The position numbers were made by a program, and so were the translations under genes. From the NCBI GenBank assembly GCA_030599585.1, contig JAUVNS010000001.1, forward strand, positions 128,001 to 192,000: a DNA stretch of 64,000 nucleotides, given 5' to 3'. Each line of letters starts with the position of its first letter. Positions within the stretch are counted from its first letter, which is position 1. Shown in pieces: positions 51,111 to 56,642 of the stretch. A model generated the notes under the pieces. The model was not told the DNA's origin, did not search any database, and saw only the letters and a list, made by a program, of their open reading frames with translations. The DNA is from Promethearchaeota archaeon. GTDB taxonomy: Archaea; Asgardarchaeota; Lokiarchaeia; Sigyniarchaeales; SOKP01.

Positions 51111-52637
51111 TTAATCATTGGATTTAATTAATTTCAACCAATTTGGATCGATGTTGTTAAGTGCAGCCTCAATTTCTTTTCTTACTGCCCAATCATCGTC
51201 CCATAACGAATTTGCTAAAGAATTTAGCATATTTTTATCTCCTAGTTGTCCTAAAGCTCTTGCGGCGGCGATTCTAATTTTTGGATCGCTGTCTTTAAGC
51301 ATTTCTATAAATGGGGAAATGTCGCTAATGTTTTCGAATTTTCCTAATGCTAAGGCAATCCAACTTTTAATGAAAATATCCTCGTCGTTAATCAAAGGTA
51401 ATAGAGCTTCTAAGCTATCTTCAGTTCCTTGTTTTATTAAGAGCTTAACTGCTGCTCTTTTAGTCTTCCAATTTGAAGAACTCAAGAAAGTCTTTACATC
51501 GTTAAGGTATTTCTGATTTGTCATTTTGGATAAAGCATCAATAGTCACGTCCCGCACTCTATTATCAGGATCGTTTAAAAGATCTATTAATGATGAAATT
51601 TGCTGGTCGTTACCCAACTTTCCTGTTAATTTTACACATAAACTTCTTATTTTCCATTCTTTAGCCTTAAGACCTTCAAGAACTTGATCTGGGACCTTAT
51701 CTTTAGAAATCTGAAGAAGGGAATTGTACGCCAATTTACGAGTTTTATTATCGCTACTCTTAAAAGAATTAATCATATAGTCAACAGCGTTCTCGTCTTC
51801 AAGTAAACCTAAAAGTTTGATTGCTTCCTTCCTCTCTATCATATTCTTGCTATTTGCAACTTCGTAAATTTTTTCATAAGAGTCAATGTTAACACAAATT
51901 CGTTTTAACGATTGAATAGATAACTTTCGTACGTTTTCGTTCTTATTTTTTAATAATTTTAGAAGGGGATCAATTGCTCGTTTACTATTAATTGTACCCA
52001 AAGCTTTGATACTTGCTTTCTTGACTTCCTCATCTGAATCATCAAGTAAATTGATAATTAGTCTTACATCCTTTACTTGAAGTAATTTTTCTAAAGCTTG
52101 AACAGCATTGCGTTTTACTTCAGGATCGTTTTTGTGAAGCAATTCTTTTAAGTAACTAATTGAATCTTCGCATTGAATTTTACCCAGAATAACTGGAATT
52201 GATCTTTTAACGTATAGATTTCCTTTATCAAAGAAGTTTATAATCTCACGTACATCTCCTAATTTTCCTATGTTCACGATTGATTTTATGACATCGTCCC
52301 TTATTTCTAAAGAGGGATTACTTAACATTTCTAATAAGGGTTGTAATGCAGAGAGGATTTTAATTTTACCAAGCGCAATCACCGCGGTTTTTCTAGCCTC
52401 TATAAAATTATCTGTAAGAGCTTCAATTAATATTGGACTTGAAACTTCTGGCACATTACTCGCCGCAACATTGATAATTGTAGCTCGTACCTTACCGTCT
52501 GCCTCATTTCTATATTGCGTAGCAAAAAAACTTAAATTTTTTTTATCAATCAAATTACCTATTGAATTAATCATATCCACTTTATTTTCTGGAACAGATG
52601 CTTTAAGATATTTTTCCTTAAATTCTTGAAATTCCAT
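51111..52637 (-). CDS. HEAT (PBS-lyase-like) repeat protein
   Basis: About 15 repeats of L...L.D....VR..A..ALG. Confidence 0.9.
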   Translation of the reverse strand: MEFQEFKEKYLKASVPENKVDMINSIGNLIDKKNLSFFATQYRNEADGKVRATIINVAASNVPEVSSPILIEALTDNFIEARKTAVIALGKIKILSALQPLLEMLSNPSLEIRDDVIKSIVNIGKLGDVREIINFFDKGNLYVKRSIPVILGKIQCEDSISYLKELLHKNDPEVKRNAVQALEKLLQVKDVRLIINLLDDSDEEVKKASIKALGTINSKRAIDPLLKLLKNKNENVRKLSIQSLKRICVNIDSYEKIYEVANSKNMIERKEAIKLLGLLEDENAVDYMINSFKSSDNKTRKLAYNSLLQISKDKVPDQVLEGLKAKEWKIRSLCVKLTGKLGNDQQISSLIDLLNDPDNRVRDVTIDALSKMTNQKYLNDVKTFLSSSNWKTKRAAVKLLIKQGTEDSLEALLPLINDEDIFIKSWIALALGKFENISDISPFIEMLKDSDPKIRIAAARALGQLGDKNMLNSLANSLWDDDWAVRKEIEAALNNIDPNWLKLIKSND

Positions 52638-52869
52638 TTTACTAATCCTTCTTCCTTTCTTTTCCTTAAAAAAGCGTCTAACTAGAGAATCGAGTGGATA
52701 TTTTTATTTTTAAGTAAATAGATAAATAGAAGTTGTGTCGATTCTGTGTATATATTGGATTTTTATATAGATGAATTTAATCATTAAAAAGATATATTGT
52801 AAAAAACACCGAGTTAGGTGAGGTTTCTTAACCTCTATATAATAAAAGAAAAGTAAAAAAAATAGAAAT

Positions 52870-53136
52870 TTACGAGCTAAGTAGCTGAAAGAGAATCGAA
52901 GCGTGAGGGATATAGAATTGATCCTTCACTTTTATTACGACGGTATGAAAATACTCAGCTAAACCTAAGAAACCTCGAATAACTGATTCGTCTTCCTCAA
53001 ATTTAAAAGTGATTTTTGCTATAGCCGCACTAGCACTGAAGTTGGCTTTTTCATAGACTCTTTCGTCAATTAAGGGGATTTTAAGCTCATTAACAATTTC
53101 ATATACTCGCTTGATGAAGAGTTCTCTCTTGGGAAT
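52870..53136 (-). CDS. 88-aa hypothetical protein with probable ATT start (absent from ORF track)
   Basis: (M)PKRELFIKRVYEIVNELKIPLIDERVYEKANFSASAAIAKITFKFEEDESVIRGFLGLAEYFHTVVIKVKDQFYIPHASILFQLLSS*; AGGTG SD-like motif ~7 nt upstream. Confidence 0.7.
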   Translation of the reverse strand: MPKRELFIKRVYEIVNELKIPLIDERVYEKANFSASAAIAKITFKFEEDESVIRGFLGLAEYFHTVVIKVKDQFYIPHASILFQLLSS

Positions 53137-53394
53137 ATTAAAACACCTATTAATATTGAATACTATTATTAAACTTACAAATGAAATATGATATATAATA
53201 TATTAGATTTGGAACATTTAAGAGTTTTTTTTTAACTGTGAAAAATATTACAAATTGAATTTAAATTAGGAAAATCTATGATACAAATATTATACAAAAA
53301 TAAAAATATAAATTAATAAATTACAATTACTACTATAGCTATATATTATTCATTTAAAATGGATGATTAAAAATTTGGAGGAAATGAACTAACC

Positions 53395-54084
53395 TTGGTT
53401 TCGAAGGAATATAAGAAGATAGAGAGGGTCGTTAATTTTATGAAAAAGGGCTTAACCTCTCTAAGCGATGACTTAGAAGATACTGTTAAAGGGATTAATG
53501 ATTTTGTAAAATCGTTAAACAAAGCCTTGAAAGATTTGAAAGATGTTTCTATTGAACCAGAATTAAAAACTGTTAGTACATCCTCTAAAAAAGTGATAGC
53601 AACTTCGGATGGTATGGCTAAAACTGCAGCAGCGAGCACTTTATTTAGTTTACTAAGCGGTAGCCCTGCTCCAGTACAAGAAATGCCTCCAACTACTGCA
53701 GCTACTGTATCTCCAACAGTAGGTGGGCCTCCTAAAGCTCCTGGAAAGGGTCCTCCAAAAAGACCTGCATCGGGCGCACCTCCAAAAGCACCAAGTAAAG
53801 GTGGACCACCTAAACGAACTAATTTACCTCCAGCACCAAAATTACCCCCCAGTTCTGGTGGTGTATCTGCTCAACCTCCTGTTTCAGGAACTGTGCAAAC
53901 GCCCTCATTCGCTAAGAGACCGATACCGCCAAAAGCACCATCAACAGGCGTTCCATCTCGACCGCCCGGAACTCCTACGGGTCCACCTGCAGCAGCACCT
54001 CAAGCAGGAGGGGGTTTAAGTTCTCTCCGAGATGAAATGTTAGAGGAGTTAAATCGTTTAAAGAAGATTATGAGAGGAGATTAG
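53395..54084 (+). CDS. Coiled-coil + proline-rich protein with C-terminal WH2-like helix (candidate actin regulator)
   Basis: N-term heptads; repeated PPK[AR]P; C-term GGGLSSLRDEMLEELNRLKKI; GGAGG upstream. Confidence 0.8.
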   Translation: MVSKEYKKIERVVNFMKKGLTSLSDDLEDTVKGINDFVKSLNKALKDLKDVSIEPELKTVSTSSKKVIATSDGMAKTAAASTLFSLLSGSPAPVQEMPPTTAATVSPTVGGPPKAPGKGPPKRPASGAPPKAPSKGGPPKRTNLPPAPKLPPSSGGVSAQPPVSGTVQTPSFAKRPIPPKAPSTGVPSRPPGTPTGPPAAAPQAGGGLSSLRDEMLEELNRLKKIMRGD

Positions 54085-54214
54085 TAACTAACTCCTTGTT
54101 TTTTATCTAATACTTATTTTTATACCGTTTTAACCTCGATTTTTACATCTTATAAAATTCATTACTATTAATTCAAAACATTTTTAATCATCGATTATGA
54201 ACTATTTAGTATAG

Positions 54215-54961
54215 ATGGATAAACACAATACTATCATCTGCGAAAACAATATACCAATTGTAGTTCCTAAACGCATAATGGTACTTGCTGGTCATCCAGA
54301 CGATGAAATCATATCTTGTGGTGGCACTCTTCTAAAATACCAAGCTTTCGGATCACAAATAATCGTTGTAGTTGCGACGAGTGGTGTTGGCGGATATGCA
54401 AAAAATAATCAAAAAGAAGGAATTATAAATCAAAGAAAACATGAGCTTGATTCTGTTCGATCAGCGTTGAAGTGTGAAATCATAGAATTAGATTTTCCTG
54501 ATATGGACATAAATAGAGAAAAAATCTCTAAGATAACAAATCTTATTAGAGATATTCAACCTCATGTTGTATTATTGCCTCATCATTCTGATTTTCATCG
54601 AGTGCATCGAAACTTGGCCTTAATTTCAAGAGAAGCAATTTACCATTGTTCGACGGGTAAAGCTTATGGAGGATATGAAAGAAACTGGACTCCATTAGGT
54701 GTGTATTATTACGAAGGACCTTCGTGTAAATTTCAATATATTGAGAGTTCTGTTTTTGTTATAGTAGATATCGAAGAATTTTGGGAGAAGAAAAAAGAGA
54801 TATTTAATATCGCCTACCTTACTCAGAAAGAAGTTTTAGGAAGAGTCATGGAGTGGGCAGAAGATACTGCGATTTTAAGAGGTAACGAAATAAATTCGTC
54901 GTATGGAGAAGCGTATATTCCTGAAACTACCTATACCCCACTTAAGCTTTTATTAGTATAG
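54215..54961 (+). CDS. PIG-L/LmbE family deacetylase
   Basis: GHPDDE...GG, R..E, D.H.VH, YYE. Confidence 0.9.
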   Translation: MDKHNTIICENNIPIVVPKRIMVLAGHPDDEIISCGGTLLKYQAFGSQIIVVVATSGVGGYAKNNQKEGIINQRKHELDSVRSALKCEIIELDFPDMDINREKISKITNLIRDIQPHVVLLPHHSDFHRVHRNLALISREAIYHCSTGKAYGGYERNWTPLGVYYYEGPSCKFQYIESSVFVIVDIEEFWEKKKEIFNIAYLTQKEVLGRVMEWAEDTAILRGNEINSSYGEAYIPETTYTPLKLLLV

Positions 54962-55029
54962 AATAGATATAAAAAGATTAAACATGTTTATTAAATAAGC
55001 GAATAAATTGCTAAAATTAATCTGACATT

Positions 55030-56145
55030 ATGGGCAATCTTACTGTTGTTTTAGACATTGGACAGTTTTCAGCTAAAGCGGGTTTTGCTGGTGAAGATAT
55101 GCCAAGCCAAGTATTCTTCACCATCGTAGGAAAGCCAAAATATAGACAAATTGATTACGAATATGGAATGGTTCGAAAAGACGACTATTATGTAGGAGAT
55201 GAGATTCAATCTTTAGGGTTATACAAAGTGCTTCACCCTATTAATAAAGGCATAATACAAGACTGGGTTTCATTCGGAAAAATAATTGATTATATCTTCT
55301 ATAATTTAAGAGTCGACCCTAGTTTAGTAAATGTCTTATTTGCCGTCCATCCTTTGTTTCCTCATAATGATTTAAAAAAGCTATTTGAATTATTTTTGGA
55401 ACATTATCAATGTAATGCTTTTTATCCGGTATTAGATTCTATGCTCACTTTGTATGCAGGAGGATTTCGAACAGGTTTGGTAATAGAGATCGGAGATAGT
55501 CTGACAAGAATAGTCCCAATCTATGAAGGTTATAAACTAGATCACGCAATTAGAATTCTTGAAATTGGCGGAAGAACTCTCACAAAATTTATGGAAAAAA
55601 TATTAGGTGCAAAAGGGTATTCGTCAGATTCTTCAATAAGAAGAGAACTCGTCAGGGCCTTAAAGGAAAAAGCATGTTTTGTCTCCCTCGATTACAAAGA
55701 AGATTTGAAGAGAGTTGAACAATATGAAAAAGAATATTCCTTGCCGGATGGCTCAACGATTTCTTTAGCTAGAGAGAGATTCGAAGTTCCGGAATTATTA
55801 TTTAGCCCTTCAATGGAATTAGAGGAAAAATCTCTCCCAGAAGCAATTATGGATGTAATTGAAATGTGTGACTTAGATGTCCGTCCAGATTTACTAAACA
55901 ATATTTTTTTGTCGGGAGGGTCTTCGATGTTTCCAAATCTCAAGTCTCGAATCTATCAAGAATTAGAAATTGAATTGGCGAGGCGTAAAAAGAAAAGCCA
56001 AGTCATCAAAATAATTGCACCCCGGGAAAGAATTTTCTCAGTTTGGGTAGGAGGATCGATTTTAGCAATGATTCCCGAATTCGAGCAGAACTGGATAACC
56101 AGAGCAAAATATTTTACTGATGGTATTCCTGAAGATATTCTATAA
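55030..56145 (+). CDS. Actin-related protein (divergent Asgard actin homolog)
   Basis: DIG...KAGFAGED.P, YVGDE, VPIYEGY, GGRTLT, LKEK.CFV, Y.LPDG, ERF.VPE.LF.P, LSGGSSMFP, SVWVGGSILA. Confidence 0.95.
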   Translation: MGNLTVVLDIGQFSAKAGFAGEDMPSQVFFTIVGKPKYRQIDYEYGMVRKDDYYVGDEIQSLGLYKVLHPINKGIIQDWVSFGKIIDYIFYNLRVDPSLVNVLFAVHPLFPHNDLKKLFELFLEHYQCNAFYPVLDSMLTLYAGGFRTGLVIEIGDSLTRIVPIYEGYKLDHAIRILEIGGRTLTKFMEKILGAKGYSSDSSIRRELVRALKEKACFVSLDYKEDLKRVEQYEKEYSLPDGSTISLARERFEVPELLFSPSMELEEKSLPEAIMDVIEMCDLDVRPDLLNNIFLSGGSSMFPNLKSRIYQELEIELARRKKKSQVIKIIAPRERIFSVWVGGSILAMIPEFEQNWITRAKYFTDGIPEDIL

Positions 56146-56270
56146 ATCGCCGCTTAAGATTCAAGCATCTGTTTTTCAAAGTATTATTGTAATATTACAA
56201 GCGTATTACAGTTTTTTAAAAATATTATTCTGATATTATATTTTAGTGTAATTTCATCTTAATTGGAGGA

Positions 56271-56642
56271 ATGAAAATGGAAGAACCTCAGAATACTAGT
56301 TTTGAACAAACCAAAGTTCTAAAAAAATATTACAAACCTAACTACTCTCAATTATTTAATAAGATAAAAGACATTAAAACTCCGGTAAAAAATGAAATAT
56401 TAATGTCTTTACTTGATGGGAATTGGCATACTGAATTAGATTTAATAAGAGTAGCTAAGCAGAAAATGAGATATTTGGGAGCTGTTACCTTAGGGACAAT
56501 GATTCACTCTTTAAATCACCATCTAAAGAACGATTACCTTGAAAAGAAAATGATAAACGGAAAGCTATCTTACAGAATCTCAGATAATTATGTTGGGCTA
56601 ACTCGAGCGGCATACAACAAATATAGGTTTAAAATGGACTAA
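56271..56642 (+). CDS. Small basic protein, probably winged-helix
   Basis: ILMSLLDGNWHTELDLIR..., C-terminal beta-wing YRIS. Confidence 0.6.
   Translation: MKMEEPQNTSFEQTKVLKKYYKPNYSQLFNKIKDIKTPVKNEILMSLLDGNWHTELDLIRVAKQKMRYLGAVTLGTMIHSLNHHLKNDYLEKKMINGKLSYRISDNYVGLTRAAYNKYRFKMD

Follow-up and report, generated by a model that had tools for sequence, protein, structure and literature searches.

A proline-arm protein encoded beside an actin paralogue belongs to a widespread Asgard family with a putative docking helix

Here, we describe a 229-amino-acid (aa) protein with an N-terminal coiled coil, a proline-rich arm, and a terminal helix. It is encoded in a 64,000-nucleotide (nt) stretch, hereafter called the window (G000:C20:128001-192000), of the 4.85-Mb genome of the Asgard archaeon Promethearchaeota archaeon. 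G and L labels denote sampled genomes and loci, f and g labels denote Asgard families and genera, and f1 is the window's own family. The gene lies near those for an actin paralogue and an 88-aa protein, and a first-pass annotation, made from the sequence alone, had interpreted its product as a WH2/VASP-like partner of the neighboring actin-related protein. Our results instead show that the 229-aa protein is a type A member of an Asgard family composed of an anchor, a proline arm, and an end helix, and suggest that it probably acts as a multivalent tether presenting a portable docking helix. As judged from profile matches, this family is near-universal and usually single-copy in Asgard archaea, and it appears to be undescribed.

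The architecture that the annotation had ascribed to the protein was borne out by the open reading frame (ORF) and by the helices of an AlphaFold2 model, with an arm of ~115 residues; the repeated unit PPK[A/R]P occurs four times, and the terminal motif reads as annotated. The gene starts with TTG, and its counterparts in an alignment of 23 homologues (A1, which also served as the AlphaFold2 input) begin with ATG, GTG, or TTG at the equivalent position. Since the first 15 residues are conserved across these equivalent starts, the long form of the protein is real. Hydrophobic residues are spaced 3-4 apart along the N-terminal helix (residues 4-49) in the model, and the predicted template modeling score (pTM) for the whole chain was just 0.21. 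The longest proline runs are PP, and no DNA-level tandem repeat was detected in the arm. The invariant arm motif (residues 143-152; Table 1) has the counterpart L-P-P-P-P-K-[LM]-P-P in the sister family f3. Searches of Pfam (cut-off for whole proteins, E<=0.01), NCBIfam, PDB sequences, and the ESM Atlas returned no match to the 229-aa protein. The gene is single copy in its genome (full-length profile match, 2.7e-113; tail profile, 5.2e-16), and the family has more than 200 members at E<=0.01 and is present in 117 of the 134 genomes of f1. The gene is real, and its family extends far beyond chance. By eye, a T6 run lies ~14-19 nt past the stop codon.

The terminal helix is an amphipathic element of ~20 residues that is conserved across Asgard classes. 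Its consensus over 16 lineages reads phi-x-x-L-[RK]-x-E-M-[LM]-x-E-[LI]-x-[RK]-[LI]-K-x-phi-[MFI], with L, M, E, and K invariant. With the invariant M taken as 0, hydrophobic residues fall at -7, -4, 0, +4, +7, and +11 and form a near-straight stripe alongside which the charges are conserved. In the AlphaFold2 model, the helix (residues 208-226) runs continuously through the LKKI element near its end. The counterpart of LKKI in other classes is IKGM, LKSI, or LKRL; among the 16 lineages, the second basic residue varies (K, R, S, G, E, T, or A), and the position after the basic pair always holds a bulky hydrophobic (I, L, F, Y, or M).

We searched 400 genomes of the phylum with a profile covering the arm end and helix (A4; the last 42 residues of 16 lineages), and it matched 328 of them (82%), mostly with one copy each. 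Matches were found in 76 of the 90 high-quality genomes and in 74 of the 85 genera, and those matched proteins that have source names include ones labeled Heimdallarchaeum, Odinarchaeota, Sifarchaeia, Atabeyarchaeia, and Helarchaeota. Family f13 includes Heimdallarchaeum aukensis and f9 includes an Atabeyarchaeia genome, f27 matches proteins labeled Odinarchaeota, and f28 matches one labeled Sifarchaeia. One member, P0149, bears the label PF27509.1, which is absent from the Pfam copy searched, so a recent entry may cover part of the family.

Two anchor types were distinguished. Besides the Lokiarchaeia class, families f19, f21, f26, and f27 have type A proteins, which carry the conserved N-terminal helix. 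Type B proteins, represented by sequences of f9, f13, f15, f18, and f31, consist of an N-terminal membrane span, basic residues, a coiled coil, the arm, and the helix; because the positive charges come after the membrane span, the arm and helix are predicted to be cytoplasmic. A polytopic membrane domain takes the place of the single span in f16. Only tails at contig ends were visible in f20, f28, and f29, and the Sifarchaeia-labeled protein matching the f28 tail is cut at its N terminus and has a coiled coil and no membrane span. The arm ranges from ~100 to >150 residues across the family, and the type and number of its repeats vary by lineage (PPKAP, PPTAP, GPPSGPPKA, PPRPPAAVG, and GGPPGG). 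Sequence-specific arm ligands (SH3, UEV PTAP, and profilin) were considered and rejected because the repeat unit differs between lineages.

The helix is also found outside this layout. An exhaustive profile search of 1.84 billion representatives yielded 59 proteins at E<=0.001, mostly family members or fragments. The remaining architectures were two or three tandem internal helix copies preceding a Cys-rich domain (one cluster labeled Sigynarchaeota); a Ras-family GTPase followed by two helix copies and the same Cys-rich domain; Ras-family GTPases with one terminal copy, one of them from a Lokiarchaeota metagenome-assembled genome; three tandem copies in a protein labeled Odinarchaeota; and a TIR-domain fusion of a type A protein that has a membrane anchor. 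These non-standard carriers are P0219, P0243, P0246, P0207, P0209, P0235, P0242, P0225, and P0241, and the Ras and TIR domains of the fusions were confirmed by Pfam. Since one copy equals about three quarters of the window's helix residue for residue, it is the same module, and the helix is portable. It is displayed in multiple copies, through a coiled coil, in tandem, or by virtue of many anchors, which suggests that its receptor is polymeric, oligomeric, or an abundant monomer. Tandem helix display recalls RPEL motifs and tandem-WH2 proteins. In the window genome, a homologue of the GTPase plus Cys-rich protein lacking the helix is encoded at C28:129258-129935.

We compared gene order around the proline-arm gene in 20 loci of the Lokiarchaeia class, 13 from f1 (eight genera) and 7 from the sister families f3, f4, f5, and f7. 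The order 88-aa gene, proline-arm gene, actin paralogue, and 123-aa gene was found in all 13 f1 loci, with the actin paralogue co-oriented with the proline-arm gene in each. Topoisomerase IA came next in 11 of the 13, a PIG-L gene lay between the proline-arm and actin genes in 7, and the HEAT gene was present at varying distance in 5; two loci have the block interrupted by insertions of ~5 kb. Linkage to actin is thus no stronger than linkage to topoisomerase and looks like inherited gene order. No actin gene was present within +-8 kb in any of the seven sister-family loci. Outside f1, orthologues of the actin paralogue (50-53% identity) were found only in f3, where 44 kb and 273 kb separate them from the proline-arm gene. 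In the three genomes checked from f5, f7, and f19, families that retain the proline-arm gene, the best actin matches had 42-43% identity and were read as Lokiactin. The first-pass annotation had suggested examining neighborhood conservation across Asgard genomes, and the comparison showed that the actin linkage is not conserved beyond the family level. The annotation had named loss of this linkage as grounds for refuting its model, and the proposed partnership with the adjacent actin is weakened accordingly.

Two f3 genomes retain scattered neighbors: in G135 (C1, 2.215-2.260 Mb) the proline-arm gene, the 88-aa gene, and the orthologue of the actin paralogue lie within 45 kb, and in G138 (C1, 456-467 kb) the 88-aa gene lies 9 kb from the actin paralogue, the proline-arm homologue being located at about 729,370-730,164 of the chromosome. 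This arrangement looks like decaying ancestral synteny.

The 88-aa gene, by comparison, adjoins the proline-arm gene in all 13 f1 loci and is also adjacent or near in f5, f7, f19, f21, f26, and f27, whether divergent, tandem, or convergent; in one f3 genome it lies within 3 kb. It was not found in f9, f13, f15, f16, f18, f20, or f28 (0 of 3 in f9, 0 of 31 in f13, 0 of 22 in f16, and 0 of 5 in f28). Together, these results indicate that the constant gene partner of the proline-arm gene is the 88-aa protein, not the adjacent actin paralogue.

The 88-aa protein, which the first-pass annotation had placed on the opposite strand, is the product of a real gene. Its frame contains no ATG, GTG, or TTG start; here and in two congeneric genomes it opens at an ATT codon preceded by AGGTG, and homologues in other genera start with ATG, TTG, or ATA at the equivalent codon. 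Standard gene callers would miss or shorten it. Among the Lokiarchaeia loci sampled, its products share 56-95% identity. AlphaFold2 modeled the 88-aa protein with high confidence, at a predicted local distance difference test score (pLDDT) of 88.6 and with the topology a-b-b-a-b-b-b. Nothing related was found in Pfam, NCBIfam, the PDB sequence search, or the ESM Atlas. Fold searches gave a best Foldseek E of 0.12 and a best VIA-align Z of 4.2 (histidine-kinase ATP-binding domains and half-glyoxalase modules), which we took as no match; the roadblock, longin, and profilin folds, considered on the basis of topology, were absent from the listings of both searches. Some homologues carry in-frame stops near the 5' end (L019:9795-10088 in G184, G177:C20:12957-13211, and G271:C38:11360-11653). 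The L019 stop is a TAG within a 10-codon insertion, and single stops turned up in the whole-genome search in G177 (TAG) and G271 (TGA). Such stops could stem from sequencing error, recoding, or a small insertion.

We propose that the N-terminal helix of the 229-aa protein oligomerizes and binds the 88-aa protein, and that the two together would replace the membrane anchor of type B. Because the 88-aa gene tracks the type A lineages, its product would serve the type A N-terminal module rather than the end helix. The arm would be a flexible spacer reaching up to ~35 nm (~115 residues x 0.31 nm), and several copies of the end helix would dock on a conserved receptor, polymeric or abundant, that is encoded elsewhere. 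By analogy with arcadin-2, the leading candidate for this receptor, still a tentative one, is the hydrophobic groove of actin or the filament surface, although the 229-aa protein is not a dedicated partner of the adjacent paralogue. Helices of this kind are known to favor that groove as a binding site, and there are weak genomic hints toward actin, namely the paralogue adjacent throughout f1 and a gelsolin gene 3.4 kb away in one f19 genome. A bolder and more doubtful extension is that the end helix is an ancestral actin-binding module, engaging the groove or the side of the filament, that is displayed multivalently on the membrane (type B), on the 88-aa complex (type A), on Ras-family GTPases, and on tandem proteins. 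Vps4 MIT binding, homotypic zippering, and some other receptor remain alternatives to actin.

Several observations weigh against this proposal. All faces of the helix are conserved, exceeding the need of a one-sided groove binder. We infer the role of the 88-aa protein from adjacency and co-occurrence, and its co-occurrence with type A, seen in lineages related to each other, may reflect a single evolutionary event and carries no statistical weight; moreover, genus g76 (f31, type B) has an 88-aa homologue too, on another contig. The other neighbors of the proline-arm gene outside f1 are housekeeping genes. Among genomes of families without a helix match, actin is present in 16 of 17 and Snf7 in 11 of 17, so the distribution of the helix does not favor actin in particular; Snf7 is near-universal in Asgard genomes (263 of 268). 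The binding partner of each part is putative, and nothing in these features is specific to actin. Finally, the main text of a preprint on Lokiactin co-immunoprecipitation reports enrichment of gelsolins, a profilin, and an Arf GTPase and names no proline-rich protein (bioRxiv 10.1101/2025.11.30.690169).

The closest architectural parallel is the crenactin regulator arcadin-2 of Pyrobaculum calidifontis. Behind its core and unstructured linker comes a conserved C-terminal helix of 17 residues, which by itself binds crenactin in the hydrophobic groove (PMC5173319). In both proteins, a linker that is unstructured and not conserved separates the core from a small conserved helix at the C terminus, and both genes can lie beside an actin gene. 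However, arcadin-2 is crenarchaeal and has no long proline arm, and we claim no sequence relationship between the two. In the 229-aa family, moreover, actin adjacency occurs only in f1, actin binding is predicted by analogy, and the helix also occurs in tandem and on GTPases. Type B proteins, for their part, resemble ZipA-type tethers and the FtsZ linker with its C-terminal peptide in that a long, flexible, P-rich stretch joins a membrane anchor to a putative binding element at the end of the chain, and one source's automatic annotation labels some of them ZipA. The end of ZipA, however, is a globular FtsZ-binding domain and not a 20-residue helix, and there is no homology.

The first-pass reading, in which the protein is a WH2/VASP-type nucleation or elongation factor that works with the adjacent actin-related protein and recruits profilin-actin through its proline repeats, is quite improbable. 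It draws on the layout of the protein, in which an oligomerization helix and a proline arm precede an amphipathic helix whose L-K-K-I end, in Lokiarchaeia, recalls the Leu-Lys-Lys-x element of WH2 domains, and on the co-orientation with the actin paralogue at all 13 sampled f1 loci. Yet no WH2 domain (PF02205) was detected in the whole protein (E<=0.01) or in isolated tails of 40-94 residues from five lineages (E<=10, with the reservation that HMMER filters may drop very weak matches), and the tail profile matched no WH2-bearing PDB chain at E<=10. L-K-K follows the helix hydrophobics at a spacing of just two residues and lies within the predicted continuous helix, the residue after it is a bulky hydrophobic where a WH2 domain would have T, V, or A, and the element degenerates in other classes; the WH2 assignment thus fails on every feature examined. 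The L..EM...L.R.K pattern of the helix may resemble the opening of the F-actin-binding segment of VASP, which is of the G-G-G-x-L-M-E-E-M type: L-x-x-E-M...L-x-R-x-K is kept across Asgard classes, whereas the GGG prefix is limited to the Lokiarchaeia class, and GCN4 zippers match the stretch at least as well. Like Ena/VASP proteins, the 229-aa protein joins a proline-rich region to an oligomerizing coiled coil and would thereby display several copies of a short amphipathic helix with basic and acidic residues, but it has no EVH1 domain and no Ena/VASP match in Pfam, and its only coiled coil is N-terminal, unlike the C-terminal tetramerizing one of Ena/VASP. Its proline runs, only PP, are too short for canonical profilin binding, the repeat sequence is unconserved between lineages, and a published study reported no binding of VASP polyproline by Loki and Odin profilins (PMC8410842). 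No actin match at the level of the paralogue was found in the checked genomes of f5, f7, and f19, families that keep the proline-arm gene. It is about as improbable that the end helix binds the adjacent 88-aa protein in a closed two-gene complex: the strict, orientation-independent adjacency in type A lineages and the high conservation of both proteins would fit, but type B proteins keep a near-unchanged helix without the 88-aa gene in f9, f13, f16, and f28, and GTPase and tandem-copy proteins bear the helix too.

Two further readings of the end helix are unlikely, though they deserve more weight. It could be an Asgard-type MIT-interacting motif (MIM) that recruits, or is remodeled by, Vps4 in the manner of ESCRT-III tails; a Vps4 MIT domain is encoded in the genome at G000:C22:67284-67469. 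The nine-residue core [LM]-x-x-E-[LI]-x-[KR]-L-[KR] is common to the helix and to the ESCRT-III tails of six Asgard lineages, and it occurs in the last 20 residues of just 3 of 7013 open frames, namely the 229-aa protein and two ESCRT-III proteins. As in the genome's own ESCRT-III tails, the core (phi-x-x-E-phi-x-+-L-+) lies behind a proline-containing linker. IST1 likewise consists of a core, a proline-rich linker, and terminal MIMs. MIM1-like tails have been described in the Asgard Vps2/24/46 subunits (PMC7240154). The core pattern, however, was drawn up after both sequence sets were known, and the likeness was not significant in unbiased scans: a hidden Markov model of the helix family ranked an ESCRT-III tail ~37th at 2.7 bits, and a BLOSUM scan gave no enrichment. 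The canonical [DE]-x-x-L-x-x-R-L-x-x-L-[KR] matches no open frame of the genome, the 229-aa protein has no Snf7 match or fold, the helix is longer than MIM1 and has invariant L, R, and M residues that are missing from ESCRT-III tails, and the proline-arm gene is unlinked to ESCRT genes in the seven genomes compared. Furthermore, we know of no tandem internal copies or GTPase fusions of MIMs. About equally unlikely is a plain short coiled-coil zipper that pairs with itself, with the N-terminal helix, or with helices of proteins such as the GTPase fusions, building a network or condensate. The sole PDB matches of the tail profile were GCN4-type zippers of the R-L-K-K-L kind (E 0.19), all-face conservation fits burial in a bundle, the hydrophobic stripe has suitable spacing, and a helix found in tandem and on several unrelated proteins behaves as homotypic modules do. 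Three turns are weak alone, however, the AlphaFold2 model with its low pTM gives no sign of terminal-helix packing, and a generic zipper would not remain near-invariant across Asgard classes. Motif-level likenesses come easily in helices rich in K, E, L, and R.

In the six lineages, the ESCRT-III tail core reads L-E-x-E-[IL]-x-[KR]-L-[KR], with Glu replacing the Arg of eukaryotic MIM1 and usually with G-x-L-P-x-[VI]-P upstream (G000:C22 near 68284, G000:C40 near 330158, and L039-L047). This substitution suggests a charge-swapped MIT-MIM1 interface in Asgard archaea.

In the literature searched, the Asgard actin-binding proteins so far are profilins and gelsolins, no membrane anchor, nucleator, elongator, nucleation-promoting factor, or VASP-like factor has been reported, and WH2-like motifs have been described only inside gelsolins (PMC9433394; bioRxiv 10.1101/2025.11.30.690169). 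The family described here is one of the most widespread nameless Asgard-specific proteins, and it is laid out like a tether or assembly factor. Its receptor, be it actin, Vps4, or a new protein, would define a conserved hub of Asgard cell biology and would explain the helix on small GTPases. If the actin-module proposal is true, the archaeal relatives of eukaryotes already had a GTPase-linked, membrane-tethered system of actin anchoring or assembly that is unrelated to WH2 domains, formins, and Ena/VASP. The case also shows that adjacency inside one genome family plus an LKK-like motif is not evidence of a WH2 module.

Table 1. Features of the window discussed in the text (coordinates are window positions)
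Feature	Coordinates	Strand	Evidence
Proline-arm protein with putative docking helix (type A), 229 aa, stop codon included	53395..54084	+	ORF; alignment A1; >200 homologues
N-terminal heptad helix, residues 4-49	53404..53541	+	AlphaFold2, block pLDDT 79-92; ~27 columns invariant across 23 homologues
Short conserved amphipathic helix, residues 77-87	53623..53655	+	AlphaFold2; invariant K76-S88 block in A1
Proline-rich disordered arm with PPK[AR]P units, residues ~90-205	53662..54009	+	pLDDT below 60
Invariant arm motif N-L-P-P-A-P-K-L-P-P, residues 143-152	53821..53850	+	Columns L144-P152 invariant in A1
Terminal docking helix (putative), residues 208-226	54016..54072	+	AlphaFold2, pLDDT ~89; invariant in Lokiarchaeia class
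Alpha/beta protein of 88 aa with ATT start, regularly paired with type A genes	52873..53136	-	Conservation; AlphaFold2; adjacency
Divergent actin paralogue	55030..56145	+	Pfam Actin E 1.4e-88, 298 bits; neighbor in f1 only
PIG-L family deacetylase, optional neighbor	54215..54961	+	Pfam E 3e-22
123-aa protein, syntenic with actin paralogue	56271..56642	+	Conserved after actin gene in f1
HEAT-repeat protein, variable neighbor	51111..52637	-	Pfam HEAT_2 E 6e-66

Among the neighbors of the proline-arm gene outside f1, one that departs from the housekeeping genes is a 205-aa two-domain gelsolin in the f19 genome G108 (L026:1595-2209, minus strand; Pfam E 7e-28), 3.4 kb from the pair formed with the 88-aa gene; no counterpart was present in the examined stretch of the related G098 locus. 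A longin-like protein is encoded 0.4 kb from the pair in f26 (L030:9129-9578, plus strand; Pfam Longin E 2e-4), and a 152-aa ORF that looks similar by eye lies ~4.6 kb from the pair in f27 (L028:2856-3314, minus strand).

Within the window, Pfam confirmed the PIG-L, actin, and HEAT identities assigned in the first-pass annotation, and all the ORFs it named were found where it had placed them (Table 1). Of the four actin-family genes in this genome, the one in the window scored 294 bits in the whole-genome search, far under the 442 bits of the Lokiactin-type gene at G000:C4:4909-6021, and we therefore regard it as a divergent paralogue. A weak profilin-like frame (G000:C4:26452-26736, plus strand; Pfam E 0.002, below the cut-off) lies ~20 kb from this Lokiactin-type gene. 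The 123-aa gene, earlier labeled wHTH-like, had no match in Pfam or the PDB; it is doubled in tandem in genus g11 (L004:11044-11793 and L005:11046-11764).

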